Shown: piece after piece, positions 5,360-42,416 of the stretch
Numbering within the stretch: position 1 is the stretch's first letter
How the letters are laid out: each line of letters begins with the position of its first letter
Source: Oscillospiraceae bacterium
GTDB taxonomy: Bacteria > Bacillota > Clostridia > Oscillospirales > Oscillospiraceae
NCBI GenBank assembly: GCA_031266955.1
Contig: JAISAA010000263.1
Coordinates: forward strand, 1 to 44,151
Direction of reading: 5' to 3'
DNA length: 44,151 nucleotides
Position numbers and translations under genes: made by a program
The notes under the pieces: model-generated
The model's input: the letters and a program-made list of their open reading frames with translations, nothing else
Told to the model about the DNA's origin: nothing
Database searches by the model: none

Positions 5360-5401
5360 GCCGGATTTTTGTATTTTGGGACGGATACTATGTGATACGC
5401 G

Positions 5402-6700: not shown

Positions 6701-6722
6701 AAAGTGCTATCACCTCACATTT

Positions 6723-6750
6723 ATTATACCCTAAAAAAGCGAAAGGTCAA
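6723..6750 (-). promoter_or_regulatory. SigA-type promoter for the 5402-6700 ATPase gene
   Basis: On the minus strand: TTGACC (6750-6745), 16-nt spacer, TATAAT (6728-6723). Confidence 0.5.
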
Positions 6751-6793
6751 GTATTTTTTAATTTGCGCATATAATTTTTGTGCTGCAAACCCC

Positions 6794-6822
6794 TTGACAA
6801 CTTCTTCCGTCCGGTGTATAGT
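6794..6822 (+). promoter_or_regulatory. Near-consensus SigA-type promoter upstream of the SBP and giant genes
   Basis: TTGACA (6794-6799), 17-nt spacer, TATAGT (6817-6822). It is divergent from the 6723-6750 promoter and is the only good + strand promoter I see before 7053. Confidence 0.6.
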
Positions 6823-6836
6823 AAGCTTAGACCCTT

Positions 6837-6932
6837 GGAATTCTAAAGAGAATTCCGAAAAAAATTAAAAATTCCGAAACGGCGCGCCGTTTCGTGCGCT
6901 TCCTTAATTTGAACACAAATAAGGAAGCGCAC
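6837..6932 (+). promoter_or_regulatory. Three consecutive perfect hairpins in the ~230-nt 5' leader
   Basis: Hairpin A: GGAATTC-TAAAGA-GAATTCC (6837-6856). Hairpin B: the 20-nt perfect palindrome CGAAACGGCGCGCCGTTTCG (6875-6894). Hairpin C: GTGCGCTTCCTTA, 13-nt loop, TAAGGAAGCGCAC (6894-6932, 13-bp stem). AATTCCGAAA occurs twice (6851-6860, 6871-6880). None is followed by a canonical T-run; only TTTT at 6939-6942. Confidence 0.5.
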
Positions 6933-7052
6933 GAAGGATTTTCAGCCGCTGTTTGAGCGCGCGGGCGGCGGAGCCCGGCGTCGGGATTTGGATCCGGACG
7001 GTCAAAGCGGACAAGATCAAAGCGAACAAAATGGAGGCATAGGTGTAAAGAG

Positions 7053-8771
7053 ATGGGCGACAGGCTTGATAACGGACAAAACGCTCCCGCCGAAGAAAAT
7101 ACGGTGAATACGGCGAATACGGAGAATACGGAAAATGCGGCGGGCGGCGTCAAATTTTCGGTAAAGAAGCGGAGCATAACAATTATCGCGGCGGCGCTGG
7201 CGGCGGCGGGACTCATAGCCGCGATAACCGCGCTGATATTGGGCGGCGGCGTCAGGGGCGTCTCTACTATATATAAGGCCGCGACGGATAAGTCCACGGT
7301 CATAGAGCATATGGTCGTCGGCGTTGAGGGACTTGAGGGCGGCTACCGCCCACAGGACGTGGCGCTGCCCGGCGACAGGCTGGTGTCGGACGCTATCTAT
7401 GAGCCTCTTGTGGCCGCCGGCCCGGAGGGGCTGCCGGTGAACGTGCTGGCGGAGAGCGTGACGCTTTCGCCGGACGGCCTTGTGTACACGGTGCGGCTCA
7501 AGGACGGTGTGAAATTTCACAACGGCCAGCTTTTGACGGCGCGGGACGTCGCCGCGTCAACGGCGGCGCTCATCGGGCGGGGTACGCGGTTCGAGCCCTA
7601 TCTGGCGGGGCTTAACGGGTATGAGGAATACATAGGCGGCGCGCCGGAGCTGTCGGGCGTCGTCGCCGAGGGCGAGGCTGCGGTGGTGTTCAGCTTCGCG
7701 TCGGCCAAGGCCGAAAATGTCTGGGCGCTGGGCGTCGGCGTGCAAAGGGCCGACGAGATAGGGGATTATTCGGCGGTCAACGGCACCGGCCCGTATAAAT
7801 ACGGCTCTTACTCCGAGGCGCGGCGGACGCTCATCCTTGAACCCAATGGGGATCACCGGGGCGGCGCGCCGGCCGGCGGCGTATCGCTTCGGGATATGAC
7901 CCTGTCCGAGGCCGTGGGTCTGTACAAGGCCGGCGAGATAAACGCTTTCCAGTTCAACTACGATGAGAAGCTGCTGTCCGAGGCGGCGGCAATACCGGAT
8001 ATCAACATCTATCAGGGCGACGGGGGCGGCTATCTGTATCTGGGGATAAATTGCGCCAGATTTGACGTCCCGCTGCGGCGGGCGCTGGCCTATGCGCTGG
8101 ATCGCGAGGCGTTCGCGGCGGAGGTGTTCGGCGGGGGAGCGGCTGCTGCTGCGCTGCCGCTGCCGGAGGCGGCCTTTGCCGCCGACGGGCTGAGTAAGCT
8201 CGCCCGGTATAAGCACAGCGAACGGGCGGCGCTGCGTGAATTTAAGGCGGCGGGGTATGAGAAAAACGCCGCCGGGAAAATGGCGTCGGCGGACGGTACG
8301 CTCCTGACGCTGACTATCACGGCGCTGGATACGGAGCTTGCCCGCCGCGAGTTGAACGCGATAGCGGCGCAGCTTGATGAGTACGGTGTGCAGGTGTCGC
8401 AGGATTTGATACCGTACAAGGACTACCGCGCGCAGATATACCGGGACGGCGACTATGACCTGTATATGTCTACCTGGCAGGGCGGCGCTTACGTGGATAT
8501 GAGCCGCTTCGCCCGCGGCTCGGGTATGAACATAGAAAACTGGGAGAATGAAACGGCTTACGCGGCGCTGGAGGAAATAGCCGCGGCAATAAGCTATGAG
8601 GCGGCGGCGGAGCATTACGCGGAGCTGCTCGGGCAGTACGGCGGCGACGTGCCGCAGATACCGCTGGCGACGACGAAGCGCTTTCTGGCGGCGCACCACA
8701 GCATAAAGGGCTTGTCTTACTCGCAATATTCCACGGTGTTCGGAAATCTGAGCGGCGTGAAAATAGGCTGA
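7053..8771 (+). CDS. ABC-transporter family-5 (peptide/nickel type) solute-binding protein, membrane-anchored, orphan
   Basis: 572-aa ORF. The N-terminus has a low-complexity segment followed by a hydrophobic anchor (ITIIAAALAAAGLIAAITALILGG) with no lipobox Cys. VRLKDGVKFHNGQLLTARDVAAS matches the hallmark SBP_bac_5 motif. No permease or ATPase genes occur in the window. Confidence 0.8.
   Translation: MGDRLDNGQNAPAEENTVNTANTENTENAAGGVKFSVKKRSITIIAAALAAAGLIAAITALILGGGVRGVSTIYKAATDKSTVIEHMVVGVEGLEGGYRPQDVALPGDRLVSDAIYEPLVAAGPEGLPVNVLAESVTLSPDGLVYTVRLKDGVKFHNGQLLTARDVAASTAALIGRGTRFEPYLAGLNGYEEYIGGAPELSGVVAEGEAAVVFSFASAKAENVWALGVGVQRADEIGDYSAVNGTGPYKYGSYSEARRTLILEPNGDHRGGAPAGGVSLRDMTLSEAVGLYKAGEINAFQFNYDEKLLSEAAAIPDINIYQGDGGGYLYLGINCARFDVPLRRALAYALDREAFAAEVFGGGAAAAALPLPEAAFAADGLSKLARYKHSERAALREFKAAGYEKNAAGKMASADGTLLTLTITALDTELARRELNAIAAQLDEYGVQVSQDLIPYKDYRAQIYRDGDYDLYMSTWQGGAYVDMSRFARGSGMNIENWENETAYAALEEIAAAISYEAAAEHYAELLGQYGGDVPQIPLATTKRFLAAHHSIKGLSYSQYSTVFGNLSGVKIG
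7097..7141 (+). repeat. Five tandem copies of a 9-bp unit, in frame, within the SBP N-terminus
   Basis: AAATACGGT GAATACGGC GAATACGGA GAATACGGA AAATGCGGC, encoding NTV NTA NTE NTE NAA. Confidence 0.85.
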
Positions 8772-8802
8772 TACCGCACATAAACAGGGGGGATACTTGG
8801 TT

Positions 8803-8928
8803 ATGAAGAATACACTGAAATACCTGAAAAGGCTTGTCAGCGCGGCGGCGCTGAAACGCGCGATAGCGGCGCTGCTCGTGGCGCTGACGCTGATGCAGAA
8901 CGGCGCCTCAATACTGCCCGCGCTTGCC
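8803..8928 (+). other. Signal peptide of the giant protein
   Basis: MKNTLKYLKRLVSAAALKRAIAALLVALTLMQNGASILPALA|DTGEE: a basic n-region, a hydrophobic core and an A-L-A cleavage-type site ending at nt 8928. Confidence 0.7.
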
Positions 8929-11900
8929 GATACGGGAGAGGAGCAGACACAGCAGGAGCAGGTGACGCAAACACAGGAGCAGCAGCCGGAGCCGGAGCCG
9001 GAGCAATCGCAGCCGGAACCGGAGCCGGAGCAGACCGGCGGACAGACCGGCGAGCAAGCCGGCCCGCCGACGCCCGGCGCGGGGGATAGCCCGCAGGAGC
9101 CGGCGAAAACGCCGGAGAAAACCGGCGAACAGGCCGGCCCTCCCACGCCGGACGGCAAAACGGGGCAAACGGAGCCGCCAAACGAGAGCTTTGAAAACGG
9201 TGGAGTGCTAAGCGAGCTTGAGGACCGGCTTAATTCCGGCGAAAGCCTGAACAGCGAGGCGGGCCCTCAAAGCGACGAGGGCGAGGAGCCCGAAACCGGT
9301 GAGGAGCCCGGAGACGGCGAAGAAGACCCCGGGCTGCCGCCGGACGCGCAGGGCGAGGTGGGCCTGCGGATTGTCCTAAACAGCGATGGGGCGGAGAGCG
9401 AGTTCCTGGACGAGGATCACAGGGTCCGCATGGTAAAGCCCACGGAGGAGGGCACAAATATCAAGACGGCTCGGGCGATCTTGGAGATAGTGCCGCCCAC
9501 GGCGGGAGCTGCAAACAATGTGGTCGTCCATCTGCGTCTCGGCTACGTGGGCCCGGACGGGGAGGACGGCGCCACGTTTAAGCACAGCGACAGCCCCCTT
9601 GACGAGGCGCAGGCCCCCGGCTACGGCGGCGTCTGGGTCAACATTGAAGAGGACAGCGCCAGTACTGAAGCGGCGTGGATAATCCCGACGGAGGAATGCG
9701 CGGGCGTAATAAACCAAACGATAGAGGATGACGGGAAGCTCTGGCATTACGGCTCAGAGGCCGTCATACTGTTTCCGAGCGTGCCGGACACGTATCATTT
9801 TACGGTTCCGCTGGAGTACGGCTTCTACGGCGAGGTGCCGGAGGGTATGCGCTTTTATATGTACGCCTGGGTGGAGTACGAGGGCATAGACGGGAACACA
9901 GACTTGGGCTGGAAGCAGCCCTACAGCGGCCCGTATCAGGAGACGATTTTTTATCTGCTGCCGACAAATATAAAGTGGCAGCCAAAGGTTGACGTCGTAA
10001 AGCCGGTAGTCGTCGCATGGGACAGGTACAACTATGACGTGTTCGACGTCAAGGTGAATAACAACTCGATAAAGCCCTCGGCTGTTATCAACGACACAAA
10101 GCTTTTCTTCACAGTCCCGCCCGCCTTCTCAAACCAGAAGGACGCGAACGGCGGCGAGGTGGACCCGGATATCCGCCGCTGGAAATACAACGGCGACGAC
10201 CCGCCCGTCGAGGTGACGAACTACGACACCGGTATCTCCAACGACCCGTACATAGGCGTGATCGACAAGGGCGGCCTGCTGATCTACGACGTCACGGATA
10301 TAGACCCGGAGCTGCTGGAGGGCGAGGCGTGGGACAGGCTCATGCCGACGCTGACGGGCATCCCCTACTACGTGACGGGCGACGGCCAGATATACTTCAA
10401 TATGGGCAATACGCTGCTGCCCGATCCCGCTAACGTCGAGATTGCCGACGTCGATAATCAATACGGCGGCTACAGGCAGCAATTTGAAGACCTCGACGGC
10501 CGCGCCGAGAGAAAATACCGTATATACATCCCGATAGCCAACCTGTTCAACTACCGCCCGGCGGATATCATCACCGGCGTGCAGGCGACAATATTTTTCG
10601 GGCACGAGATAAAAGAGCAGACCGGCTGGACAAAGGAAGACCTCGCCAAGGTCTCGCACGTGTACCCGAAGCACGAAATGACGTTGAGAAAGTACACGGA
10701 CACCCCCACAAATTACCTGTACGAGGACGCGTCATTTTACATCTCGGACGTGACGAACGTCGAGCAGGACGAGGGGAACTACACCCCGGCAAAGGTGCGC
10801 CTGACGGACGCGATACCGGACGGCTTTATGCTGGAGTACATCGAGTACATAGTTCCCGACGACGATTACTACGCCCCTGAAAACTGGCTGGGCGAGGACG
10901 GACGCTACAGCTATTATCTGGTGGACGACGGCGACCCGGATAAAAACGAGTTCAATATCACCGTCAACAATCCGGACGATGCCGAAAGAATTGAAGTGGA
11001 GGCCGACGTATACCCCGCGCTGGAGTACAGGCGGAACATCTGGAGTGAGGTTCTTGACCCCGAGACACATGACCCGGTGCTCGATCCCGAGACGAACGAG
11101 CCGCTTCTGGAGCTCACCGGCACGGAATGGGTTCCGTTTTACGCCAACGACGAGGCTGTAAATGCGTTGACCTCGGAGACGGCGAAGACGCAGGCCCTGT
11201 TCGGTGAATATACCGTCGAAGACGATAAGCGCGTGTACCGCATACCCGTGCCGGCGGAGTTCAACAAGGATCTGCAAAAGGGCGTGGAGCCGATCGACGT
11301 CGTACAGCCGCCGTCGCCGCCGCTTGAGCCGCACGAGCTCCGCATAAATTTCAAGGAGTATTTCGACATCGCCTACACGTTCCCCGGCACGTTCAGGCTG
11401 GCCGGCAATATCAACAAGACGGGCGTGATCGAGAATACGGTCAGGCTAAACCGCGATTACCGGCACGAGGTAACAAAGCAGGACGATTACACGAAGACTT
11501 GGCGCCCCACCTATGTGGAAAACCCGCGTGACGTGGCGAACGGCGTCCTAAAAGGGATGATCGGCGAGCTGCCGCCCGTGACGGCGACGGCCCGCATCAC
11601 AGTGCCCGACCCGCTACCCGTGCTGACGATGAAAGCGTTCGCGGACGATGTGTCGCCCGGCAGTGGTGAGGTGAGCGAATGGGTCTACGGAGACGCGTTG
11701 CAGGCGATACAGCACGCCCCCGTCGGCTACAGGGCGGACATTACGATGAGCAACGCAAGCTCGATGCGCGACGTTGACGCTGAGCTGACGATCCCGTACA
11801 ACGGGGGCGTCAACGGCGACCGCGCCAGCTTCCGCTTCTCAGATTTCTACGTCAGCCCGCAGACGGTCGAGGTGGCCGGCGTCACCTCAATAAAATTCTA

Positions 11901-14900
11901 CAGCGACGAGTTTTCCGGCGATATGGATGGCATACTCCCCGCCGTGCCGTATCTGCGCGACGAGGTGCGCGTCTATCCGCCCGAAATTGAGGGCGGCGAA
12001 TACACCACGGAGATATTCCACTACCCCGACCCGTCCCGGGCGGAATGGGCGGACGCCGACGACCATACTAAGGGCAGAGTGCCGCCGGAGGAAGTGACGG
12101 GCCAGCCGAGCGGGACCGAGTTCACCGCGTGGCGTATAGCGGCAAACCCGGTATCTGCGGAGGAATATAAGTACAAAATATTCGCGGAGTTCGACAACGC
12201 CGGCGGCCTCATTATATATATGAGCGACGCGGCGGCCCCGGCGGGCTTGGATGAAAATGAGCTGACAGGCGACTTTTCCGTTGACCCCAGCTACAACGTC
12301 GGCGACCCCTCCAAGTCAAACAGGCTGCTGCGCTGGGCGTACAAGGTCCCGAAAATCTCCCTGCACCTGTTTGAGATACCCGGCGGCACAGCCGCAAACA
12401 CCATATTCGTCCAGATGAACGCGCGCGGAAGCTCCCAGGCCTTAAACGCTGAAAATAATGACGAACGGGTCACGGAGTACGGCATCGCCGCCCCCGGCAC
12501 GTACATTTCGCAGGGCACGCTGTCCGCGAAAATACCGACCGGCTATCAGACGCGTAAACCGCTCACCCGCAGCGATACCGCGCGGATACAAATTGCCCCC
12601 GCCACGCTCTGGACGGAGGCAAAGGTGCTGTGGCCTGAGCGGAGCGATACGCCGGCGGATACGAAAGCCGTAGCCTACGGCACGCCGGTGTGGTTCCGTT
12701 ACCGCGCGGGCAATATATCCCAAAACCCGTTTGAGCCGGCGTGGCTGACTATGACGCTGCCGCTTGTGACGGCGGACGCAAACAACCGGATGCGCGGCTT
12801 TCAGGCGGACGAGCTCGAGATTTCAAACGCGCTGTGGTCGCGGCTTAGGGCAAGCTCGTCGAAAAAAAGCCTGCATTCGATAACCTTCGTCAGCGCGGAG
12901 GACCCGGAGGTCACGTTCACGCTTGACCTGGAGAAAGAGGACAATCAGCAATACTATAACTACGACGAAATAGAAACCGACGATAGCATCGCAATGACCG
13001 TCACAAAAGAGCAGTGGAAGGCGTTCATAGCATCGGAATACACAGCCGAGAACGAAGCCCTGTCGCTGGGTCTGTCCCCCGAGACCATAGCGGCGCTGGC
13101 GGAAAGCTTCCGCCTCGGGCAGGTGCGCCTCGACTTCTACGACTACCCGCGTGACGTAGACGGCGAGAAAGACAGGAAGAAGGTGGAGCCGACAGTCGCA
13201 TACTGCGACGAGGTGTACATTAAAGGCGCCGTGAATCACTATTTCACAGCGCAGCAGCCCGGCGTAACAAGCGTGGTGTGGGACGGCGACAACATTACGG
13301 CGCCGGTCAGCGATTCGGCAAGGGTGACGACGACGCCGTTCACAATAGGCGCGCAGGCGTACACGTTCAGGAACGGAAAGGACGCCGTACTGAAAACCGC
13401 CGACCAAGCGCCGTTCAACGACCCGGGCAGCGCCCCGTACATTTTCCGTCTGACAAACAGCAGCGTCAGCGGCGTCTGGGACTCAGCCGTCGAAATAACG
13501 CTGCCGCTTATCACCACCGGCAGCGCCGCCGGCAGGGGCTTTCAGGCCGAGGCGGTGACGCTGACGGAAGAATTCTTCCGCGACGCGGACATAGCGTGCG
13601 TCCGGCTGACGGGAACGGGCGGGACGGAAACGGACGAGTACGGCAAACCGATCACCGAATACGTCATAGAGGCGGCGGCTATAGAGGCCGGGATGAGCGG
13701 GGAGATTTACATCATAACCGAGGACGCTGAAGGCTGGCAAAAATATGTCGGCAAGCTGTTAAAGGTGACGGTGGAGCTCAACAGCTTTAAGGAGCAAGTG
13801 ACTTTCGCGACGAGTTACACCCCGGCGGAGCCGGGTGATCCGGAGGATCCGGAAGACGAGGGCACACCGGCGGACTACGGAACCTATTTCGACCACCACA
13901 TCCGCGTGGACGGTCACATCGACGCCTACGAATATTCCGCGGCGGCCAAAAACTTTGTCGCGAACGTCGTCTGGCGCGTGCGGGACTTCGCGGCGGAGCA
14001 GAGGGCAAACGCGCAATACGAGGTGACGCCCGCCAACCCCATTTCGGTGGCCTACGCCTGGGCGAAAGAAGACGACGAGGGGAACGATATGCCCTACGCG
14101 GACGTTTTTTACGATGAGAACGAAGGCGACGGCTACGGCATACATAATGACACCGCCGTGTATCTGGAGCAGGACAAAGAAGAAGGCTCCCCGGCCTACG
14201 TGTTCGAGCTCAACAACGACTCCGCGAGCTGGCTGTGGGAATCCGCGATACATATCGAGCTTCCGGTGAACACCTACGGCAGCGCGGTAAACAAGGGCTT
14301 CCGGGCGGAGTATATAAAATTCACTGCGGAATTCCTGCGCCACGCCGTCATAGCCGGCGGCGAAAACGGCGTCATAAAGCTGACGGACTCCGAGGGGAAA
14401 ATATACGAGATACCGGTCTCCGAGCTGGACCTGCCGGCCAATCACGCGACGATCAAGCAAAATGACAGCTCCGCCGCATACACGGAATATAAACTCTCTT
14501 TGACGGGCCTCAAGGCGACGGACGGCGAGGACTTCGGGCTTTTGCGCTTCATAGACGTCGAGCTGTCGGACTATAAGGGCGAAGCGAAGCACGGCGAGGA
14601 CGGCGAGGGCGCCAACATCATAGTCGGCGGCCTGTTCGACGCGACGCATTACTTCGGGGAACCGCTCTATCCGGCTAATTGGAGCCATGAGTTCCCGGCG
14701 GTGATCACCTGGACGTCGAGCGGCGTGAGCATACCGCGCACCTACAATACGGCGAAATTCTCCGTGACCGATTTCAATTTGCAAGTCAGGGCTTTCGCGT
14801 GGGGCGAGGACTACGCTACGCTCCAAGCTATGTTCAACGACTCAAACGAGCATAACGCGACCGCGAAGGACGGCACGCGCGCGCCGGTATCCGGTGACCC

Positions 14901-29900: not shown

Positions 29901-32900
29901 GGTTCAGGTGCTGACTCCCCGCACGGAAAAGGTGCAGGGCGCGACGGCGGCCGATATTCGCCCCGTATACGGCTACGTAAAAGTCGGTGATGAATACATC
30001 TGGCAAGCGCTGGAGGACGGCGATATTTCGGCAATGGCGGACGAAGTGAAAACCAGCTACACCGCCGCCCGGCCGCCGGAGGACACGCCGCTGCGCGAGA
30101 ACACCGTATGGGCGGAGAGCCGTATGCACCTGCGCCGCGGCTGGCTTGCCGCGACGTCGGAGCTCCCGTCGGAAAAATTGGAGTACGAACAAAACCTCGA
30201 CCTCAAGCTTACAGCCTACAACTACGGCGACTGGGGCTTTAGCGGAGTTAATTTTGTCGAGGTAATGCCCTTGGGCACACAGCCCCGGTTCGACTCGGAC
30301 GGTCTCCCCGTGGCGGAGATAACGCTGGGCGGCGTGACCTACAACAGCAAGGATGCTCCGGGCGTAATAAAAACAGAGATCATCCAGAGCCCCGCCTATT
30401 ACGACCCGGAGAATAAACAAAGCCACGCCGCGAAGGTGGACCCCGATAATCAATACGTCGCGCCCATTGAGCAGATGGATTATAACGTGCGGCCCTACGC
30501 CGCCGCGCCCTTACACAATGACATCAACATCGGCTACGTCGCCGACGCCGTCCCGTGGGTTGTGAAGGTGACGGTCACGAGCGAGCTTGGCGTGTGGTGG
30601 AACTCCGCCAAGGAAACCGCGTGGGCGGCGGAGGGCAATCCGCTGCAAAGCGGGTGGGCCGGAGACCCGTCGCAGTACACGGCGGTGTTGAAGGCCGCCG
30701 TAGTGGACCTCAATTACAACGAAAAATGGTACGACAAGCTGCTGGCGTACCCCATTTTGGACGGAAATTCAACGGAATATGAGATTTACGACTATGAGTA
30801 CTCATCCACCGGCAGAACCGGCGCGGCGACTAAGCTCAAGGACAAAATCACCGGCGAGACGGCGGGCCGGGGGACGGATCCTGTTCCCGCGACGTATGTT
30901 TTCCGCCTGTATGAGAATCCGTCGGGGAGGCGCAGCTTAGGGTACGCGCAGGATGATGACGTAAAACGCGCGATCGATCAGTCAACAAACAGTCCCCCAA
31001 CCTTTGGGATCGGGTACAACTATTTTTACCATAGCTGGTACCGCGATAGCGCGAAATATTTCGCGAGAGACACAAGCCTCCATACCGATTACGTCAACAA
31101 AGAAATCAAGCCCATAGCCTGGCAAGCGCCGTACATACACGGCGTCAACAAGCACACCGTCCGCGCCTCGGCGGATATGACGGAAAGCTTGCCGGGCTTT
31201 GAGGGCGTCCCCTATTCCGGCAAAAACGCCTATGAAGTGCGCAAGGTGGCGCGCAACGGCGACTACGCCGACGCCAAACACCCGACCATCGGCCTGACGC
31301 CCAGCGTCGGGGCCGACGCGGAGACGGATTACTCGACACAGGTCTCAGAGCCGATCCAGAATTTTGACATTCACCTGAAGGCGGACTCCACCTCCAACAC
31401 GCTGTTTGACCCGGTGTACACCGTCCTGTTCCCGCAGGGCATAGTCCCGATGACGACCCGCACGGTAGGCGACGTACCCCTGTCCAGCGACGGCACGCCC
31501 TACCCGTGGTATCAGCCGGAAGGCACCTACAGCGCAGAAGGCCCCGGCGAGAAAAACGCGACGTGGCTGAACGGCGTATACATAGGCTCCTGGGACGAGG
31601 GTGAAGGCAAATACGTCAAAGACCCCGAAATAGAGGCGGCGATGGCGCTGATCGACCCGGACGGCGAAGGGATGCAAATATTGTGGTCCGTGGGTCTCGA
31701 CAGCGACGAGACGGCGAAAAATCTCGGCGTAACAGTCAACACCGCCGTGGGCGACCGGCAGACGACGGCAGACCCGATAAAATATCTGGACGGTACGCTT
31801 GTCAGCGATGGCTCAATTACGGAGGAATATCTGAAATCGCTGTTTGACGTGCGCGTGGATTGGCTGTACTACGCCGACGGCGACGCTTACGGCGGTACGC
31901 CGGGCGTGCCCATGCGCCGGTATCTGGTGCAGTTTATCCCGAAAGTGCAGCCTTTCAAAGAGGGCTTGCGCATCCCGCAGGGCTCGTCGCTGACGATCTC
32001 AATAAGAACGGCGGCGGCGGCGACGCCCGAAGTGCTTACCCCCGGCGTGGACCCGGACGACCCGCCCCGCGAAAACGTCGCGCTGGTGCAGCGCTGGCAG
32101 GATATTGTCACTTTCCTGACGAGCCGCAGCGACCCGACGAAGCTGCAAGCGGCGCCGGAGTCCGCCTACCCCTCGTCGCAGTTCAAGAGCGCGCTGACAA
32201 AGTACGAGGAGGACGGCGCCATACAGTTAGAGCACTGGACGGCGGACCGCTTCCCGCAGTACAAAAGGCCGGCGGCCTATCTGCCCCAGCGGGCGAGAGA
32301 AGCGCTGAACGGCGAGGACCCGCACGGCATTGCGCCGGGCGGCGAGCTGGTATATATCTTCACGCAGAACCCGAATCCGGAATCTTGGAAGGACGTCGGC
32401 GTTATGCGCACGATGTACGTCAAGGGCGCGGGGCCGCGGCTTGTGCTGGATAAGCGCATCGTGGCGTCCACCCGTTACGACGAGGAAAAGAACGCGGCCG
32501 TGCCGACGCCGGGCACCCCGGATCAGCCGGACGGCAGGGGAGCGCTTCTGGCAAACAATGCCGCCCCGCCGCTGTACTCCTTCGGCGACGAGATATGGTT
32601 CTCACTGGAGGCGTTAAACGACCCGTCCATCAGAAACGAGTCCAACAAAGACCTCGGCGTCCTGACGAATTCCCAGCTGCTGTTTGTAGACCAGCTCCCG
32701 GACTTCCTCAGCTACGCCTACGATTATATAATAGAGATACAAGACCCGGACGATCCGGCTAAGACCAAGCTGCTGACAAGGGATGAGGCCGCCGCCGCCG
32801 GCTGGCAGATCGCGCTTAAGGCCGATATGACGCAGCCTATGCCCTCCACGACCGGCGCGGAGCATATAGTGATGTTCACGGCGCTGACGCCCAGCCGCGT

Positions 32901-35900
32901 AAAGGACGGGCAGAAGCTGGCTATGGGCCGTATGGAGCCTGACGAATGGTTCCGCCTGCGGATCAAGACCCGCGTGTCAATGCTGCCCGAGCCGGACAAG
33001 GTGGAGGCGCCTAAGGATGTGAACGGGCAGCTGGGTACGGTGCTCAGCGAGTGGGGCCCGTATACCAACTACGCCTATCTCGGCGTGGAGAACAGCAATT
33101 ATCCCACAGCCGGCGTCACGATCTTGGTGGAGCAGGAGGTGGGCTCTATCGAGTTCGCCAACGCCGTGGAGGAATACGCCCAAAACCGCGACTATGACCG
33201 GGACGGCAAAAAAGACAAATTTTTCAGCGCCGACAGCGAGAGACTGAGGCTCTTGCAGCCCAACGTAAACGCCCGCAAGGAAACCGACGGCGTCCGCCAG
33301 CGCTACGACACGGGCAGCACTCAGGTGCCGATCTACACCGCGGCGGAGGACATCGGCTTCGTCTTAGCGGACGTCGAGAACCGCGGCGGCCCGCTAAAGG
33401 AACTGATAATTCAGGACATCCTGCCCAGCAGGGACAACACGACTATGGCGATAAAGGACTGGACCACCAACATCAAGAGCGTCCAAACCGGCAAATGGTC
33501 GGTCCCGGCGCCCTACAGGCCGGCCGATTACGGCGTATACGTCTACTACGCGACGCAGTACACCGACCCCGTTGACCTCGGCAATACCTACGCCACAGAC
33601 CACGGCGCCGGCGGCGTCTGGACGCTTGCAAATCCTGACCTCGACGACGACGGCGTCCCGGACGGTCTGCCGATAGACGAAAACATGGAAATCAAATTCA
33701 TCGTCTACGACGAAGGCGGCCTCACGATAAACACCGCGGCGACGAAGGAGCTGCAAGAGGGCATACGTCAGATACGCATCGTCATACGCGGTAACAACGG
33801 TCAGCTTGTCCCGCAGGGGCTAAAGGTCGATTATTCCGACCCGGAGCCCGATCCGGGGGACTACGATTACACGGCCTATCTCGCGGCGTCCGCGCTGACC
33901 GCCCCGAATTTCGAGCAACCCGGCAATCCGTATGATCTGGGCTCAAAGACCGCCAACATCTTTGACCGTCTGGAGCGGTTCAATTACTGGCAGTACAGAA
34001 ATATGCTCAGCGAGACGGTGCCGAAGCTCGTTCAGCAGCGCGCGCCGATGATATATATGTCCGTCACCGCTTACGAGGCGTTCCCGCTGCCCCTGAAAAA
34101 TCAGGCGCAGTTCTGGGGACAGTATTCGGACGCCTACTTCAAGGAGTTTGAGTATAACGACGCCTCCTTCCGCATCGCGGACACGGTGCCGACGGTGGAC
34201 CTGCGCATCGAGACGCGCTACTTCAAGTACAATAATAATGAAACCCCAACAAATTTGAACGACGACTATTTCGCGTGGTCTAAGGACCTGATAATAAACC
34301 CGCTGCGCTCCACGACGCTGCTGTACAAGGTGCAGTATGAATCGGTGAAGGACGTGGAGTGGAAGGGGCTCCCGGACGTGTGGGATGCGGATTACGACAA
34401 GCGCCTCGCCGACAGCCGCGCGCAGAACGGAGATGATATTGATACGCTCCTGCCTGCCGGATGGCGGGACTTGGACATCGACGAGGTAAACACGCTGGGC
34501 AATACATTCCTGCCCGAGCGGTGGGCGCTGCGCAATCTGGTGGCGTGGAGGATGATACCGCTGGAGCGGCAGAAGCTGTACCGAGAGGACGCGATCATCG
34601 ACCCCGTCGTCACCGTGGCCCTGTCGCCGCTGGCGACGGTGAACGCCGATTTTGAGATGTATAAATGGCAGGCGGACAACGGCGAAGGCGCCGTGGACGG
34701 CGCCCGCAGCTCTCCGCTGCAAATAGCGGGCCTCAGCGAGGCGAACGGTTACAACGAACAGCTCGGCCCGGAGGCGGATTATACCCCCTTCGAGGCGACT
34801 AAGGACCTGCGCCAGATGACGTATAACGGTCAGGCGGGCTATTTCCTGAACAAGGACGCCTGGACGTGGCGCGTCGTGGACGGCTACGGCAGGACCGTAT
34901 ACGACAGCGACGTAATGCTGTCCACAAGGGACAGAGACGGCGACGAGGTGGCCGACCCGAACGTGGTGATAAAGTCCGCCAACATCGCCGAGCCGGACGA
35001 GGCGCAGGACGGCGCCGTGACGCTCAACCGCCAGACTATAACGTGGTTCTTTGAAGGCAAGCTGCTGCCAGGGCAGTACATTGAGATATTATTCACCTGC
35101 GGCGTGGATCACACCAAGAGCTACACGACAAATATGTCGCTGCGCAGCATAGCGTTCGGAATAAACAGATCGGGCACGCTTAAGGCGTATCTGCCCGCCG
35201 GCGAGGAATCGCAGGACGGCCTGTCGCTGCAAAACGACGCGAACGATTTTAACGAAAATGGAAAATTCGTCGAGCGCGACGCCGTGCGCAACTCCGAGCT
35301 GTTCGTGTTCTCCGATATCAGCACGCAGATCGTGTTCAAGGACGCGATAACGGCGCTAAGCCCCGACCCCGGTACGCGCGCGCCGTCAGCGTCGGTGCTT
35401 GAGGAGGGCGGGGACGTGACGTTCGTCAACACGATGCGCAACCCGAACGCGACCTCCGGCGATTCGGCCAAGGACGAGGCGAACACTCTCAAAAACCCGG
35501 TGATGTTTGACATTCTTCCGTTTGTGGGCGATATGGAGGTCGTCTCGCTGGAAACGAAGTACGGCAACGGCAGCTATTATCTCGACGTGATGCGCAGGCT
35601 GGCGGGGCAGACCGATGCCGAAGGCGGCACAAAATGGAACCCGGTGTTCGACCCGTTCTCATTCGAGTCAAGCCTGCTGTCGGAGAAGCGCATAGAGAAC
35701 AAAGTGCCGGTGACGAAGGAGGACGGAACGCCGCTTCTGGATGAGAACAACGAGCCGGTGGTTACGACCGAGTACGAGTATGAGTTCACGGAGGAACAGC
35801 TCGAAAACGGCAAGGACTACACCGTCTGGTACGGTCCGATCACGCGGGACGTGAACGGCACGGTGAACGGTATCGGCGACTTTGAATTTAACAAGGTGCT

Positions 35901-38900
35901 GGACTCCAATACGCCGAACAAAGGCTGGGTAAGTGCTTATGACGAGAGCACGATCACAAACGAGACCCGCAGCACGGAAAGCTTCTATAAACAAATCCGC
36001 GAGGAGATGGTGGATCAGATCAAAGAGGCCGACCTCGCGAGCATGGCCGAGCTGCGGAAATATTTCGTCAGCGAGCCGGAGCTGCGGGCGATGGAAAGCT
36101 CAAATCCCGCGATGTACAATACTCTCGTGAATCAAAACGGCTTCAAGGCGTTCTTCATCCACTTCAACACGAAGGACCAAAGGCTCGCCCCGCACTCCAG
36201 CTGGATCGTGACGTACAAGATGAGATCCCCGCTGAACTATACAAAGCCGCAGCTGAACCCGGACAGCTATCTTGACAGCGTCGCGTGGAACAACTTCGGG
36301 AGCTGGTCGTACAAGGGGACCTCGGGGTCGGCGCCCAACGACTCCAACCTCGCCGGCGTTTACGTCGGCGCGGCGCCGGGCAAGGTGTATCTCGGGGACT
36401 ACGTGTGGTTCGACGCCAACGGCGACGGACTGCAAAACGAGGTGTACGCAAAGCTTGACCAGAACAGCGGCCGCGTGCTGCCCTATATCGACGCGGACGG
36501 CAAAATGTATACGGACGAACACGAAAATGTGATTGCCGACGACCCCGGCATCAACGGCGTCCGCGTACAGCTCCTGTCGCCCGAAGGCTATGAAATAACA
36601 AGCGCCGGCGCGCGCATCAAAAAAGACCCGGAGAACGGGAAGTATTACGCCATCGACGAATTCGGCGATTGGCTCCTTTACAGCATAGACGGTGAGCGCG
36701 TAGAGTCGTCGCTGCCGCCGATGCAGCCGGTAATTACGACGACGGACTACGCCGGCCGGCGCGGCTTCTACAATATGCCCAACGTCTCGCCGAACGTCGA
36801 TTACAGCCTGCGCTTCATATTCCCAGAGACGGAGATCGGCAAGGGCCTGACAATAAAGACGACGCACGGCTTTGACGAGACCGCCGCCGTCGGAGTGACG
36901 GCTTACGGCCCCGGCGAGCTGCTGCCCGACGGCGCGACCGCGGAAACGCTTGTCGTGTACACCGGCAAATTCAGGCTGAAAAGCACTACGGCCGCGCTCG
37001 GCGAGTACGGCGATAATGCCGACAAGTACTACACGGACTTTGATATCGGCGTCAGCTACACGCTCAGCTACGCCGGGACGGTGTGGTACGATTACAACAA
37101 AACGGTGGCGCTCTACGGCAACGGCTATTTAGACGCTACGGACGGCGTCCCCGACGGACAGGGCACAAGGCCGGGCATCGCCGGGGCGACCGTGAGCCTG
37201 ATCGACGCCGATACCTACGATCCCGATGAAGACATAATAGAGACGGTCACGGGAATGAACAACCTCCCGCTGAGTATGCTTACCGGCTTAAGCGGCAAAT
37301 TCCTGTTCAACTTCGTGCCGGCGGGCAATTACATCGCGCGCGTCACGCTGCCGGACGGGACTGAATACTACCTCACGCAATATGTGGGGGAGGACGACAA
37401 GGACCCGTCCGCGGACCCGGTGAACGGAGAGCGTCATCCCAACGACGGAAAAGCGGAAACCGTCCAAGCGGCGGACCCCGAGACGGACGATCCGATAGAC
37501 GTCCCGACGGGCCATTACGTGACAAACGAGTTCACGGCTGAGATGGGAGCGCAAGAAAGTACAAATCCGAAGTGGGACGATGTATACAAGCGTTACAAGC
37601 TGATCGACGCGCTTGACTTCGGCTTCCTGCTGCCGAACTACGGCGCGATAGGCGACGTGATATGGCACGACGCCGACCACGACGGGATTCAGGGCGAAAA
37701 CGAGGCGGGGCTTGAGGGCGTCACGCTGACGCTTGAGGTCTACAAGCGCTTAGCGGACAAGTGGGAGCCGCTGAGCGAGGCTGAGGTAGAGGCGCTGGCG
37801 GCGGCCACGGGTATGAACACCGTAGCCGTGACCGACGAGGACGGCCTTTACAGCTTCACAAATCTGCCGGTGATGGATACGGCGGCGCACAGCGCCTACG
37901 GCTACAGAGTGCGGCTCGCGGAGCTGCCGGACGGATACGCCGTCACGACGTATCACGACCTCGGCAAGGACTCCGGCAATCACTTCAAAAACCCGGCGAT
38001 CACTACGGAAAGCGAAGTGGCGCTCTTCGACAGCGACCTGTACTACAACGGCTATCTCGAGCAGAGCAAGCCCGCCGCGGACGCGTTTGAGCCGATAGTC
38101 GTAGCCGCGCTTGACGATACGCTTCCCGACGGCTGGGACCTGACGAGGCCGCGCGTAATAGACGACCTCGACGGCGGTCTCATCAAAATCCCCGAGTTTA
38201 CGATAAGCGGTATCGCGTGGTACGACGAGGACGGAAACGGCCTGCGCGAGGCCGAGGCCGGCGATAGCCCGTCCCCGGACGAAATGCAGGTAGAGTTGCA
38301 ATACTACGCGTATGAAGACGGCGCGTATTACTGGCGCGACGTCCGCGTGACGGGCGAGGGCGACGAAAAACGCCTGTTGTTCGAGGGCGACGACGGCTAT
38401 GACGGGGCGGAGGGCTACGCGCTGCTCACCGCCACGGGAGCCGGCGACGCCGCTGCCGGCTCCTATAAATTCACAGGGCTGCCGATAGGCCGCGCGGTGG
38501 AGAAAAACGACGGCGTGACGGAGCTGGAGCGTCTGGGCTACAGGGTAAAGGCGACGCAAAGCCTCGGATATGTGACGTTCACGCAATACGTATCGGGAGC
38601 CGGTAACGCCGCTACGGAGAAAATAAACAGCAATGTCATGACAACGGCCGACGGCGGGATAACAGGCTATACCGACGCGCAATATCTGACGAGCGTGTTC
38701 CAACCGCCGATGACCGCGCCAGAGCTGCCGGCGGGCGCGCCCGCGGCGGCGCTGTGGCAGACGTTTGACTTTACAAAGGCCTCGAATTGCGAGAATGTGG
38801 ACGTCGGTCTGAAAAAGGCGGAGCACTCGGCAAAGCTCGGCGGCATAGTGTGGCTCGACATCAACGAAAACGGCCTGATAGACGAGTTTGACGCCGACGG

Positions 38901-40587
38901 CGACGATGCGCCGGATACGCCGGAGGTGCGCTTCCACGATAAGGCGATGTACATCTATGTAAAGAGCCTCAAGGCCGGCGACGACAAGTGGTATCCGTAT
39001 GTTATAGAGAGACCGTACTATCTCTACGAAACAGACTTCAATGCGGACGCTCTGCCTTCGCCCTCAATGGTGCGGACGGGCGGCGACGGGAGCTACGCGG
39101 CGGAGGTCGAGGCTGGCAACTTCAAGCTCGGCGCCGAGGGCTTCGGCAAGCCGTTTGAGTATCTGATGACGACGCAGCGCGTCTATGACGCGGGGCCGCC
39201 GGAAACAGGCTTGAAGTGGACGCTGTTTGACGAAGACGACCCTGATTGGGTGGGCAAGCACGCCGCCAACGAGCAAGACGACCCGTACTATATAGCGAAT
39301 AACTTCCGCGCAGCGGCGGACGGCCAGCTTGCGGACGTCGACCGAGGCGTATCGACCCCGACGCGCCTCGGCGAGAGCGACGACGACACCGGACGCTTGC
39401 TGCCCGAGACGATAGCGGACGCGATGTGGCTGAACTGCGGGCTGATCCCGCTGGATGACGAATACGAGGACAATACGCTCGAGCTCAGCAAAAGCGTGGA
39501 TAACGACGGCTCAGACGCTGAAAACCCGGTACGGCCCGGCGACGAGCTCGAGTACACGGTGACGGTCGTGAACAGAGACATAACGTGGCCGATGAGCAAG
39601 CTCCTGAAAAATGTCGTGGTGTATGACGCCGTGCCGGAGAAGACGACGTTTGTTCCGGGCTCCGTCGTCATAAAAGTGAACGGAACGACGGTGACGCCGT
39701 ACATCCCGGACGGCGAGACGCCCGGCTACGACGGGGAAAGCATAAAGCTTGTGTATATGGGTGCCGCGAACACGGAGGAGACGACTGGTCTGTGGTGGCA
39801 GATACCGGAGCTGCGCATAGACGATACGGTGGAAGTGAAGTTCAAGGTAAAAATCACGGAAGATAAGGAAGAGCTCGGATACGTTTTGGAGGACGACGGC
39901 AAGCTGCACGCGCGGATACTGAACGCCGCCCTCGCGGCGGAATTCGGTACGACCGAGATACCCGGCGACCCGGAGCCGGATCCACAAGACCCGGAGGAGC
40001 GCGACCCGAATCCCGACGTCCCGCCGCTCGATCCCGATACGCCGGTAGACCCCGACGGAGACGGCCCGGAGGAACCGGAGCTGCCGGAAAGGGACGACGC
40101 GGTGACGGAGCTTGAAGATGATCCGCCGGTTCCCGAGCCTTCACCGTCGCCCTCCGATTCTCCACCGCCGCCGCCACCGCCGCCTCTGCGGTCTCCCGAA
40201 CCGTCGCAATCACCGGAGCCGCCGGAGTCCCCGGGACCGTCTGAGCGGCCGAGAGAATCCCCGCCGGTATCCCCGCCGCCGCCGACGGTGACGCCTACGC
40301 CTACGCCAAGCCCCGGAGAAAACAGGAAGCCGCCCCCGCCGAACACGCCGGGCAATACGCTCGTGCCGAACGGAGACGGATACATAGAGATCGACCCGGA
40401 CGGGACGCCGGTAGGCGAGTGGTATCTGGACGACGACGAATGGATATTCGATCCGTTCCCGCCGCTCGGAGAGATGCCGGGAACAGGCGACAGCTTCAAG
40501 CCGGCCGCGCTGGTCGCGATATTCATCGCATCCGCCATAATACTCATTCTCATCTTCTGCGCGCCGAAACGCGGGAAAAAGAAATAG
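8803..40587 (+). CDS. Giant (~10,594 aa) secreted, sortase-signal-bearing cell-surface protein with DUF11-like modules and SdrD-B-like repeats
   Basis: One stop-free frame (ORF track 8797..40587, 10,596 aa). ATG 8803 lies 10 nt after AGGGGGGA, whereas TTG 8797 lies only 4 nt after it. It has an N-terminal signal peptide and a C-terminal MPGTG motif, hydrophobic helix and KRGKKK tail. Coherent domain signatures run throughout. The protein is acidic and aromatic-rich, and Cys is very rare. Confidence 0.9.
   Translation: [10594 protein letters not shown]
8929..9350 (+). repeat. Low-complexity Q/E/P/G-rich linker with short duplicated peptides
   Basis: QPEPEPEQ occurs twice (about 8983-9033). 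[10 protein letters not shown] occurs twice (9046-9075 and 9121-9150); the two DNA copies match at 25/30 nt and every difference is a synonymous third position. An acidic tract [18 protein letters not shown] lies at about 9280-9330. Confidence 0.8.
11720..26420 (+). repeat. Array of highly divergent protein modules sharing a three-part signature (DUF11/CARDB-like by inference)
   Basis: The central motif G-F-x-x-[ED]-x-[ILV]-x-[LF]-[TS]-x-x-[LF] recurs in frame at nt 12790, 13531, 14290, 15169, 15961, 16894, 17620, 19195, 20065, 20905 and 21751. Weaker copies lie near 11820, 18610, 22950, 24196, 25279 and 26368. Each is preceded by Y-x-[FY]-x-[LF]-x-N-x-S...W-x-S-x-x-x-I-x-LP and followed by [IV]-x-[LF]-x-[DN]-x-x-G. 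Confidence 0.7.
36393..39440 (+). repeat. Five SdrD-B-like (Cna-B-type) repeats with calcium-site motifs
   Basis: [16 protein letters not shown] (about 36393), [10 protein letters not shown] (about 37075), [28 protein letters not shown] (about 37648), [16 protein letters not shown] (about 38204) and [17 protein letters not shown] (about 38835). The W-x-D-x-[DN]-x-[DN]-G-x-x-x-x-x-E pattern is the SdrD B-repeat signature. Confidence 0.7.
39475..39875 (+). other. DUF11-type 'conserved repeat' domain
   Basis: [34 protein letters not shown]...[25 protein letters not shown]...[11 protein letters not shown] matches the canonical DUF11/TIGR01451 pattern (PGDxxxYTxxVxN...VxDxxPxxxxFVxGS). Confidence 0.65.
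39961..40350 (+). repeat. Proline-rich, wall-spanning stalk
   Basis: [42 protein letters not shown]...[40 protein letters not shown]...[27 protein letters not shown]. Confidence 0.8.
40474..40584 (+). other. Sortase-type cell-wall sorting signal with a variant motif (MPGTG)
   Basis: MPGTG (40474-40488), then DSFK, a hydrophobic helix [21 protein letters not shown], and the basic tail PKRGKKK before stop 40585-40587. Confidence 0.75.
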
Positions 40588-40592
40588 CAGGC

Positions 40593-40630
40593 AAAACCGC
40601 CTGCCCTCAACGGAGGGCAGGCGGTTTTTT
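40593..40630. terminator. Strong bidirectional intrinsic terminator
   Basis: AAAA-CCGCCTGCCCTC (40597-40608), loop AACG, GAGGGCAGGCGG (40613-40624), then TTTTTT (40625-30). This is a 12-bp GC-rich stem flanked by an A-tract and a T-tract, between stop 40587 (+) and stop 40629-31 (-). Confidence 0.85.
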
Positions 40631-41225
40631 ATATTACTCCGACCGGGAGGAGTGTATCAACATCCCATTGTATCGCCGTCATCCCCATAGAGCCCACGGT
40701 TTTTATCACGTTGTCGTCGTATTCCCCATACGGCGCGCGGAAAAGCGACGGGGTGACGCCGCACGCCGCGGCTATCTTTTCGTTCGCCTCGGCGATATTC
40801 GCTGTAATTTCGCCGGCGGACAGCTTGGTAAAATGCGCGTGGTCGTCCGAGTGGTTCATCACCTCGTGCCCGGCGTCGGCGAGCGCTTTTACAGATTCCG
40901 GATAGCGCTCCGCCCACGCGCCGACGACGAAAAACGTCGCCTTAACGCCATATTTGCCCAAAATGTCGATGAGCTGCTGCGTGTCCTCGTTGCCCCACGC
41001 CGCGTCGAACGTCAGGGAAACGGCCTTGCCGTCGCGTTCCACCGAGTAGACGGGCAGCGCGCGCGCCGTCGCCGAAGCGCCGACGACCGCGGGATGCGAC
41101 ACGACGGTGAATATCGCGGCGGCGGCAAGCACGCACCCCGCGGCGGCGAGCTTTCTGCGGCTGAGAGTGACGAACACCCTCGCAAATTTATCCTTCAACG
41201 CGTTCGGAAGCCTTGGACTGAACAT
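40629..41225 (-). CDS. NodB-domain polysaccharide deacetylase (PdaB-like), membrane-anchored, apparently C-terminally truncated
   Basis: 198-aa ORF with a GGGGGT RBS. It has an N-terminal anchor (LAAAGCVLAAAAIFTVV). NodB motifs present: LTFDAAWGNEDT (MT1 variant), NHSDDH (MT2) and FRAPYG (MT3). The ORF ends at IQWDVDTLLPVGVI*, where the family normally continues with D-W and a further ~50-60 aa including the final catalytic His motif. Confidence 0.6.
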   Translation of the reverse strand: MFSPRLPNALKDKFARVFVTLSRRKLAAAGCVLAAAAIFTVVSHPAVVGASATARALPVYSVERDGKAVSLTFDAAWGNEDTQQLIDILGKYGVKATFFVVGAWAERYPESVKALADAGHEVMNHSDDHAHFTKLSAGEITANIAEANEKIAAACGVTPSLFRAPYGEYDDNVIKTVGSMGMTAIQWDVDTLLPVGVI

Positions 41226-41543: not shown

Positions 41544-41975
41544 ATGTCAACCACACTTGCCAAACGGGAGACAGTCTCCCGCAAATGGTATGTCCTTGAC
41601 GCAAAGGGACGTCCGCTCGGACGCGTTGCGGCGCAAGCCGCCGTCATCCTGCGCGGCAAGCATAAGCCGGACTTTACGCCCAATGTGGACTGCGGCGATT
41701 TCGTCATTATAGTCAACGCCGCCGAGGCGGTGCTCACGGGAGACAAGCTCCGCCAGAAGTATTACCGCCGCCACAGCGGCTGGGTCGGCGGGCTGAAGGA
41801 AGTGCAATACAAAAAGCTGATGGAGACGCGCCCCGAGCTGGCGATGCGGCTTGCCGTCACCGGAATGCTTGCGAAGAATTCGATAGGCAGAGAGTCCGCG
41901 CGGCGTTTGCGCGTGTTCAAGGACTCAGAGCATATTCACGCGGCGCAAAAGCCCACCGCATGGAATATGGATTAA
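41544..41975 (+). CDS. rplM: 50S ribosomal protein L13
   Basis: 143 aa: RKWYVLDAKGRPLGRVAAQAAVILRGKHKPDFTPNVDCGDFVIIVNA...YYRHSGWVGGLKE is a diagnostic L13 sequence. Confidence 0.95.
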   Translation: MSTTLAKRETVSRKWYVLDAKGRPLGRVAAQAAVILRGKHKPDFTPNVDCGDFVIIVNAAEAVLTGDKLRQKYYRRHSGWVGGLKEVQYKKLMETRPELAMRLAVTGMLAKNSIGRESARRLRVFKDSEHIHAAQKPTAWNMD

Positions 41976-42011
41976 ACCAAAACGCGGAATAAAGGGAGGA
42001 CCTGAATAAAA

Positions 42012-42416
42012 ATGTATACAAGCAAAAAGCCTTATCTTTACGGCACGGGACGGCGCAAATCTTCCGTCGCTCGGGTACATCTGTTCCCCGGCGGGAACGG
42101 CGTCATCAAAATCAACGGACGCGATATCGACGATTATTTCGGGCTTGAGACGTTAAAGCTGCTCGTGCGGCAGCCGTTTGCCGTGACAGGCACGTCCGGC
42201 GGATACGATATCGAGGCTACCGTGTCAGGCGGCGGCGTTACGGGTCAGGCGGGCGCTATCCGGCACGGCGTGGCGCGCGCGCTCCTGCTTGTCGATGACA
42301 CGTTCAGGACGTCCCTGAAGGCGGCGGGGCTTCTGACCCGTGACCCGAGAATGAAGGAGCGTAAAAAATACGGGCTCAAGGCTGCTCGCCGGGCCCCGCA
42401 ATTCTCAAAACGCTGA
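42012..42416 (+). CDS. rpsI: 30S ribosomal protein S9
   Basis: 134 aa: [12 protein letters not shown]...[19 protein letters not shown]...[28 protein letters not shown] is a diagnostic S9 sequence. GGGAGG RBS and the conserved rplM-rpsI order support the call. Confidence 0.95.

Follow-up and report, generated by a model that had tools for sequence, protein, structure and literature searches.

Why should a substrate-binding protein (SBP) of the kind known from ATP-binding cassette (ABC) importers be encoded immediately before a surface protein of more than 10,000 residues? The question is raised by contig JAISAA010000263.1 of an Oscillospiraceae bacterium (assembly GCA_031266955.1), whose 44,151 nucleotides (nt) were analysed as a whole and will be referred to as the window. 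Its central part contains a gene for a membrane-anchored, family-5 SBP homologue of 572 amino acids (aa), followed on the same strand by a gene for a secreted, sortase-type surface protein of 10,594 aa, which we will refer to as the giant. An earlier note on this DNA had suggested that both proteins are functionally coupled; this is strongly supported by the recurrent adjacency of the two genes in other genomes and by giants that are homologous and collinear between loci, and a dedicated functional partnership of SBP and giant is very probable. Taken together with a mechanism, the reading that we favour on balance is that the region belongs to a module for surface display that is conserved among gut-type Clostridia and that would have the SBP-fold protein as the dedicated partner of the giant.

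The SBP homologue matches PF00496 with E = 1.6e-47 (162.8 bits, cut-off 32.4), and its AlphaFold2 (AF2) model (predicted local distance difference test, pLDDT, 84.5) presents a complete bilobal cluster-C fold. The best Foldseek matches of this model are AppA, NikZ, MppA and NikA (target-length-normalised TM-score 0.53-0.83, probability 1.0), and it lies nearest to the open forms of these proteins. A ratio of non-synonymous to synonymous substitution rates (dN/dS) of about 0.22 indicates purifying selection. No NCBIfam model reached its cut-off with the protein, the best being Opp4A with 97 bits vs 650, and its identity as a named transporter equivalog (OppA, DppA, NikA or Opp4A) was rejected on this basis. 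The protein lacks a lipobox cysteine, and a signal-anchor transmembrane (TM) helix is predicted instead. The 38-aa tail preceding this helix (window 7053-7166) is an N/T/E-rich low-complexity sequence, NTVNTANTENTEN, and is probably cytoplasmic, since KKR directly precedes the helix; it shows a 3-aa indel with respect to the 95%-identical relative P0001, and tails of 37-56 aa are also present in the relatives P0009, P0011 and P0015. As a lead only, the window SBP carries a Gly (WQGG) three residues past the conserved Trp, the position of an Asp which we take to bind the amino terminus of the peptide in OppA and DppA.

The evidence that carries the partnership comes from the relatives of this protein. 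A HMMER search with the SBP against 1.84 billion representatives returned 9,811 matches, nine of them below 1e-30; the top-ranked full-length matches are TM-anchored and devoid of a lipobox, and the lower-ranked ones are mostly lipoproteins. The closest relatives with an N-terminal TM anchor share 22-42% identity with the window SBP. The earlier note had proposed to ask whether such homologues recurrently lie beside giant genes rather than beside opp/dpp permeases, and the answer is positive: in 14 of 14 informative loci of TM-anchored relatives a giant gene adjoins the SBP gene on the same strand at a distance of 5-204 nt, and none of these loci has an ABC permease-like neighbour, permease and ATPase genes being absent up to three genes from the SBP gene. 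The control set, 22 SBP5 loci of at least 8 kb from a metagenome scan that brought up generic loci only and whose loci were not used as relatives, gave the reverse picture, with permease-like neighbours in 19/22 and a giant in 0/22. The 14 loci span 37-67% GC and both gene orders; four of them are near-identical relatives, and the set therefore amounts to about 4-5 independent lineages.

At the shortest distances, a word-indexed search returned two close SBP relatives only (95% and 84% identity; loci L001 and L002), both from one Joint Genome Institute (JGI) sample and both with the giant gene downstream; at such a short distance this adjacency is uninformative. Farther away, P0006 (42% identity, L003) is followed by a protein homologous to the N-terminal "head" of the window giant (E about 1e-80), P0012 (29%, L007, 39.5% GC) after 51 nt by a 5,898-aa giant collinear with that of the window, P0018 (24%, L012) by a 3,379-aa protein and P0020 (26%, L014) by a 7,935-aa protein, and the gene next to P0014 (28%, L009) opens with a signal peptide and an acidic linker. 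The SBP gene of P0016 (30%, L010 and L011) is preceded by a 6,614-aa giant ending in LPQTG and is followed, on the sister contig, by a sortase gene. A first genome scan with an alignment of close SBPs found nothing; the GTDB species genomes scanned with the P0016 subgroup yielded six loci (L016-L021), belonging to Intestinibacillus massiliensis, Enterocloster asparagiformis DSM 15981, E. lavalensis, Clostridiales VE202-15 and two Lachnospiraceae metagenome-assembled genomes. In all six, an open reading frame (ORF) that stays open across the whole 10-kb upstream flank (>3,260 aa) comes to its stop 5-73 nt ahead of the SBP gene, as the giant ORF of L010 also does, and the giants end in IPKTG, LPQTG or VRTG signals. 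Two particularities of these loci can be recorded here. The SBP gene of L012 overlaps the end of lepA by 8 nt. In L017 (10001-11916), from the type-strain assembly of I. massiliensis Marseille-P3216T, two ORFs of 379 and 260 aa take the place of a continuous SBP gene (NCBI entries WP_087065489.1, 379 aa, and WP_456236197.1, 277 aa), and other I. massiliensis assemblies hold an intact 560-aa SBP (WP_227105503.1); the split is a frameshift or an assembly error.

The giants themselves are mutually homologous and collinear between loci. The head of the window giant matches the giants of L003, L007 and L014, and its region of aa ~7850-9850 is collinear with the Enterocloster, Intestinibacillus and Lachnospiraceae giants (blastp E 1e-25 to 6e-51). 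Furthermore, a signal peptide followed by a linker opens the giants of L003, L007, L009 and L014, as it does that of the window. Locus L003 is instructive, as it contains two giants and two SBP genes in the order giantA (LPQTG end), SBP_A, SBP_B, giantB (L003 13-9607); the SBP genes (2091-3770 and 4016-5692) lie in tandem, and both products are TM-anchored and 40% identical to each other. Two SBPs for two giants therefore suggest one cognate SBP per giant. A low-complexity (LALT)n stretch is found at L003 1864-2037.

Within the window, the promoter-like site, the three-hairpin leader, the SBP gene, the 31-nt gap, the giant ORF and the terminator that the earlier note had described were all recovered where it had placed them (Table 1).

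Table 1. Positions of the features of the SBP-giant unit in the window.
Feature	Position	Strand	Evidence or detail
Sigma-70-type promoter-like site, TTGACA-17-TATAGT	6794..6822	+	11/12 matches
Leader, about 230 nt, three hairpins	6823..7052	+	Hairpins 6837-6856, 6875-6894, 6895-6932
Family-5 SBP homologue gene, 572 aa, membrane-anchored	7053..8771	+	Pfam SBP_bac_5
Predicted signal-anchor TM helix of the SBP, aa 39-63	7167..7241	+	Sequence; helix in AF2 model
SBP-giant spacer, 31 nt	8772..8802	+	GGGGGA ribosome-binding site 8787-8792
Giant secreted sortase-type surface protein gene, 10,594 aa, no internal stop	8803..40587	+	ORF
Signal peptide (aa 1-42) and E/P/G/Q-rich low-complexity linker (aa 43-180)	8803..9342	+	
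Conserved N-terminal head, aa ~180-1033	9340..11901	+	29% identity to L003 giant, E about 1e-80
Beta-rich module of ~225 aa, about ten strongly diverged copies, aa 1289-4131	12667..21195	+	Iterative hidden Markov model search, alignment
Conserved C-terminal region, aa ~7850-9850	32350..38352	+	Common to Enterocloster, Intestinibacillus and Lachnospiraceae giants
SdrD_B domain, aa ~9615-9724	37645-37974	+	E = 6e-21
DUF11-type repeat, aa ~10241-10290	39523..39672	+	TIGR01451, E = 8e-8, 32.1 bits (cut-off 24)
C-terminal sorting signal: MPGTG, 20-residue hydrophobic segment/TM, KRGKKK	40474..40584	+	
Intrinsic terminator: stem 40593-40628, 16 bp, 10 G-C pairs, then T-run	40593..40634	+	

The SBP and giant genes are probably co-transcribed in the window, given that only 31 nt separate them and that no terminator lies in between. 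The spacer was correctly described as free of hairpins and T-runs, and a scan found neither a terminator-like nor a promoter-like site in it. Both genes thus lie on one strand, separated by a short gap with nothing terminator- or promoter-like between them, as is typical of an operon, and this layout is kept in L001-L003. The terminator at 40593 is the sole strong candidate on the + strand 3' of the promoter, with four weak candidates (stems of 5-6 bp) within the giant gene. At the other end, the SBP gene is preceded by a divergent intergenic region of 352 nt. Promoter-like sites at the level of the one listed number three in 6600-9400 vs 0.7 expected; both of its hexamers are unchanged in L001, a 94%-identical relative. 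A second promoter-like site, on the - strand (6750-6723), faces a gene for an AAA_14/DUF4143 ATPase.

The leader folds at -88 kcal/mol (z = -4.65), and 0/200 shuffles were equally stable. Hairpin 1 has 8 bp, hairpin 2 is a GC-rich palindrome and hairpin 3 has a 13-bp stem; the GGAGG ribosome-binding site of the SBP gene lies at 7033-7037. In L001 all three stems are kept and the loop of hairpin 3 is changed, a pattern consistent with selection on the leader structure; this is thin evidence, coming from a single comparison, since L001 is the sole close relative that covers the leader. Rfam covariance models gave 0 matches at the gathering score, with two chance-level microRNA matches at E up to 1, and identity as a riboswitch or known leader RNA was rejected accordingly. 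Read on the - strand, hairpin 2 is followed by the T-run GAATTTTTAATTTTTTT (6857-6874) and scores as an intrinsic terminator. This structure could stop antisense transcription or read-through towards the divergent ATPase gene, instead of or besides regulating the SBP mRNA.

The giant ORF is open from 8797, with its ATG at 8803. As read from the sequence, the N-terminus of the protein, MKNTLKYLKRLV...ILPALA/DTG, is a Sec signal peptide with a cleavage-like site between ALA and DTG. The earlier note had counted the giant among SdrD-B/DUF11 proteins. The domains are present, with a weak Pfam match for DUF11, but they are confined to the last ~10% of the protein; the first ~9,600 aa (about 90%) match nothing in Pfam, NCBIfam or the PDB sequences. 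Searched against Pfam in pieces of 1,000 aa, with matches admitted to E = 1, the giant gave only noise before aa ~9600, and a PDB sequence search with the whole giant gave 0 matches. Membership of the Sdr/MSCRAMM group, which is marked by DEv-IgG folds, tandem B repeats and an SD-repeat region, was rejected, as there is only a short SdrD_B domain, NCBIfam SdrD scores 35 bits vs 2500, and no internal tandem repeats were found. The sorting motif, MPGTG, is not the canonical LPXTG; in the homologous giants this position is occupied by LPQTG, IPKTG or VRTG, with a TM segment and a basic tail coming next.

Internal sequence repeats are almost absent from the giant by blastp, unlike in most giant adhesins. 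The ~225-aa module shares a conserved motif, LP...GF..E; its AF2 model is beta-rich and poor (pLDDT 57), and Foldseek found no match for this model at E <= 0.001. The N-terminal third of the giant evolves with a dN/dS of 0.29-0.42, which corresponds to purifying selection. The coding strand shows a strong AT skew (+0.17 to +0.29) over its whole length. Word-indexed protein searches with aa 181-1500 and with the alignment of the internal module returned nothing, a weak null: the ~90%-identical giant of L001 was missed as well, so the index probably lacks very long proteins, and the apparent rarity of the giant family is therefore uncertain.

In one clade a third gene belongs to the module. A class B sortase gene begins 0-16 nt past the SBP stop codon in L016, L018, L019 and L020, and one is also adjacent in L011. 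Class B sortases are usually encoded together with their substrates, and accept variants of the sorting motif, that of Clostridia recognising (S/P)PXTG-type motifs (PMC4591827).

On these grounds, the module would be made up of a sortase-anchored giant (3,400-10,700 aa among the loci analysed), its cognate SBP-fold protein, which is anchored in the membrane, and, within one clade, also a class B sortase. Transcription in the window would most likely start from the promoter at 6794-6822 and give a single transcript of ~33.8 kb, with the SBP first and the giant second, ending at the 40593 terminator. The uncleaved N-terminal helix would tether the SBP-fold protein on the outer face of the membrane, where it would most likely feed no ABC importer, and would serve as a dedicated partner in the export, folding or anchoring of the giant; we infer that the two proteins interact physically. 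The cleft that typically binds peptides in this fold would take hold of a stretch of the growing giant in extended form, be it the acidic low-complexity N-terminus on its emergence from the Sec channel or the region of the C-terminal sorting signal, and would keep this stretch at the membrane until the class B sortase joins the threonine of the xPxTG motif to the wall. A holdase or sorting role of this kind is rather doubtful in its specifics. It is favoured because a chain of 10,000 residues would spend minutes in translocation, as estimated from typical translation and translocation rates, with its N-terminus free and its C-terminal anchor still unmade, and because the SBP gene abuts or nearly abuts srtB in one clade. 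It is also favoured because family-5 SBPs bind extended peptides and a chaperone-like or holdase-like activity has been described for OppA (PMC7442780, PMC9967938, PMC8144458). More generally, it is conceivable, although we would not yet call it probable, that the SBP fold has been repurposed in Clostridia as a membrane-anchored biogenesis factor for giants, each with its cognate copy; such a factor would be a chain holdase, or a cofactor presenting the sorting signal or the wall peptide to the class B sortase.

Several observations weigh against this reading. The window contains no sortase gene, and permease genes may exist elsewhere in the module-bearing genomes. Two relatives lack the giant: P0013 (L008), an exception with a lipoprotein-type signal, is followed by Ku/LigD, and P0007 (L004, 39% identity), on a contig of 1.8 kb, has a recombinase-like gene next to it. 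The ORF in question (L004 1387-1833) resembles serine recombinases/resolvases, and the context of P0007 could reflect an insertion, an inversion switch or a true exception. In a crude neighbour-joining tree of 145 SBPs the TM-anchored proteins do not form one clean clade; the association has therefore perhaps been gained or lost more than once, and monophyly is not claimed. Finally, the 138-nt gap between SBP and giant in L012 contains an 11/12 promoter-like site (5040-5068), so that the giant may also be transcribed alone in some lineages.

The alternative that survives best is that the SBP is a true ABC receptor docking on an Opp/Dpp/Nik-type permease encoded elsewhere, much like orphan OppA paralogues or PrgZ/TraC, which make use of the chromosomal Opp system. 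In this arrangement the giant would bind or release a ligand such as a peptide, metal chelate or heme and pass it inward, as in the Isd system; we consider this proposal unlikely. The full cluster-C fold, with AppA, NikZ, MppA, NikA and PrgZ as the nearest transport proteins, speaks for it, as does the purifying selection on the SBP; moreover, orphan SBPs that share one permease are established in Gram-positive Opp systems, and the isd locus is a precedent for SrtB, substrate and SBP being found together, with wall-anchored Isd proteins handing heme to the SBP IsdE. The permease-free neighbourhoods of all 14 loci, set against those of the control loci, argue in the opposite direction. Besides, the anchor is a TM helix and not the lipobox of most other family-5 HMMER matches, Pfam revealed no NEAT, protease or other recognisable ligand-handling domain in the giant, and the 1:1 duplication of SBP and giant in L003 is more easily reconciled with a cognate partner than with a receptor used in common.

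Another possibility is that the SBP-fold protein responds to an external ligand or to the condition of the giant and informs regulators, for instance through cyclic di-GMP (c-di-GMP), which control the production or release of the giant. Uses of the fold beyond transport would be exemplified by HMMER matches in which, by sequence, SBP5 domains form a four-fold tandem array (P0021, 2,754 aa) or are fused to a methyl-accepting chemotaxis protein (MCP) signalling domain (P0066) or a Ser/Thr kinase (P0117), the latter two pointing to sensing; a Rosetta-stone search yielded multi-SBP, MCP and kinase fusions of SBP5 but no fusion to an adhesin domain. In addition, a gene for a 1,100-aa protein with TPR and GGDEF (diguanylate cyclase) domains lies directly after srtB in L016 (12568-15867), with equivalents in L018 and L019, which hints at c-di-GMP control of the kind described for the SrtB substrates of C. 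difficile (PMC4591827). The SBP itself, however, possesses no output domain, being limited to a 0-55-aa N-terminal tail, presumably cytoplasmic, and one TM helix; sensor kinase, GGDEF and MCP genes are not consistently adjacent, in contrast to the giant and, in one clade, the sortase; and the window leader matches neither a c-di-GMP riboswitch nor any other Rfam family. We regard a sensory role as distinctly improbable.

That no functional link exists, the SBP being an orphan or decaying transporter remnant beside the giant by chance, is hardly credible: the same-sample close relatives L001 and L002 would share the layout by descent alone, but the adjacency persists at 22-30% SBP identity, over 37-67% GC and in both gene orders, is absent from every control locus, and involves an SBP whose dN/dS and intact fold speak against decay.

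Among the remaining genes of the window are those for polysaccharide deacetylases, two AAA_14/DUF4143 ATPases, a papain-like peptidase, the ribosomal proteins L13 and S9 and a thymidylate-synthase-like protein. As the earlier note had maintained, a family search of these other ORFs revealed no ABC permease, ABC ATPase, sortase or secretion gene. The two ATPase genes, which immediately precede the unit, are convergent (4133-5359, +, and 5402-6700, -), and L001 lacks window 5594-6651, that is, most of the - strand copy, an indel polymorphism beside the promoter region. A 300-aa ORF (3035-3937, -) shows a weak match to papain-like cysteine peptidases (Peptidase_C70/C39-like, E about 2e-4). The genes rplM-rpsI are situated at 41544-42416 (+), 1 kb downstream of the unit; the module is therefore located in a core chromosomal neighbourhood, with no obvious mobile element.

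From the biological point of view, the export, folding and anchoring of Gram-positive proteins of 5,000-10,000 residues are poorly understood, and a conserved partner gene provides an experimental handle on them. The module is present in cultured human-gut isolates, such as E. asparagiformis DSM 15981 (WP_007716446.1) and I. massiliensis (WP_227105503.1), and is thus accessible to genetic and biochemical tests. Public annotation describes these SBPs as "ABC transporter substrate-binding protein" or "peptide/nickel transport system", labels that are probably misleading for the TM-anchored subfamily. If our reading is true, the repurposed SBP would add a new class to the accessory factors of giant-protein display. 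The giant, for its part, is about 90% sequence "dark matter", and represents a conserved family of gut Clostridia that probably serves adhesion or cell-surface architecture.

Several known systems resemble the module in part. The cluster-C SBPs (B. subtilis AppA, 1XOC; NikZ/NikA, MppA, OppA/DppA) belong to the same Pfam family and share the bilobal fold of the window SBP (profile E 1e-74 to AppA, Foldseek probability 1.0). Nonetheless, identity to the window SBP is only 16-22%; these proteins are lipoproteins or soluble periplasmic proteins, whereas the window SBP is anchored by a TM helix, and they are normally accompanied by permease and ATPase genes, whereas the TM-anchored relatives stand beside a giant sortase-substrate gene instead. 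In class B sortase operons (S. aureus isdCDEF-srtB-isdG, C. difficile SrtB with its (S/P)PXTG adhesins), the sortase is encoded beside a presumed xPxTG-variant substrate, as in the Enterocloster and Lachnospiraceae loci, and in isd an SBP gene is part of the sortase cluster, as in the present module. However, IsdE is a heme SBP of another class accompanied by the permease IsdF, in contrast to a family-5 SBP in a permease-less locus, and the isd substrates are small and contain NEAT domains, in contrast to NEAT-free giants. PrgZ and TraC of enterococcal conjugative plasmids are likewise family-5 SBPs without a permease, on elements that carry a sortase-anchored aggregation adhesin, and PrgZ (4FAJ) is found among the PDB sequence matches of the window SBP. 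As a lipoprotein, PrgZ has a signal peptide imported by the chromosomal Opp system, which it recruits; to our knowledge, its gene is neither adjacent nor translationally coupled to the adhesin gene and does not recur with giant genes.

A membrane-bound or dedicated helper that handles a large sortase substrate during translocation or afterwards is a concept shared with MdbA, the membrane-anchored oxidoreductase of actinobacterial pilus assembly, with the accessory Sec system of serine-rich repeat adhesins and with OppA; the fold and gene family of MdbA and of Asp/SecA2 differ from those of the SBP, whose chaperone role would be the point in common. On the side of the giant, Ebh and SiiE/LapA-type proteins are also secreted, several thousand residues long and probably composed of beta-rich domains, but the window giant is almost free of repeats and ~90% of it matches no family. 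Two surveys of giant proteins mention no SBP5 or sortase partner (PMC11573180; bioRxiv 10.1101/2023.11.21.568195), the SBPs near the giant genes of Omnitrophota coming with transporters (giant-protein survey), and full-text literature searches yielded no paper linking giant genes, SBPs and sortases, in agreement with the statement of the earlier note that the pairing could not be matched to a described system. Within this landscape, the region would be a sortase-dependent display locus with a conserved SBP-fold protein as an undescribed, putative accessory.

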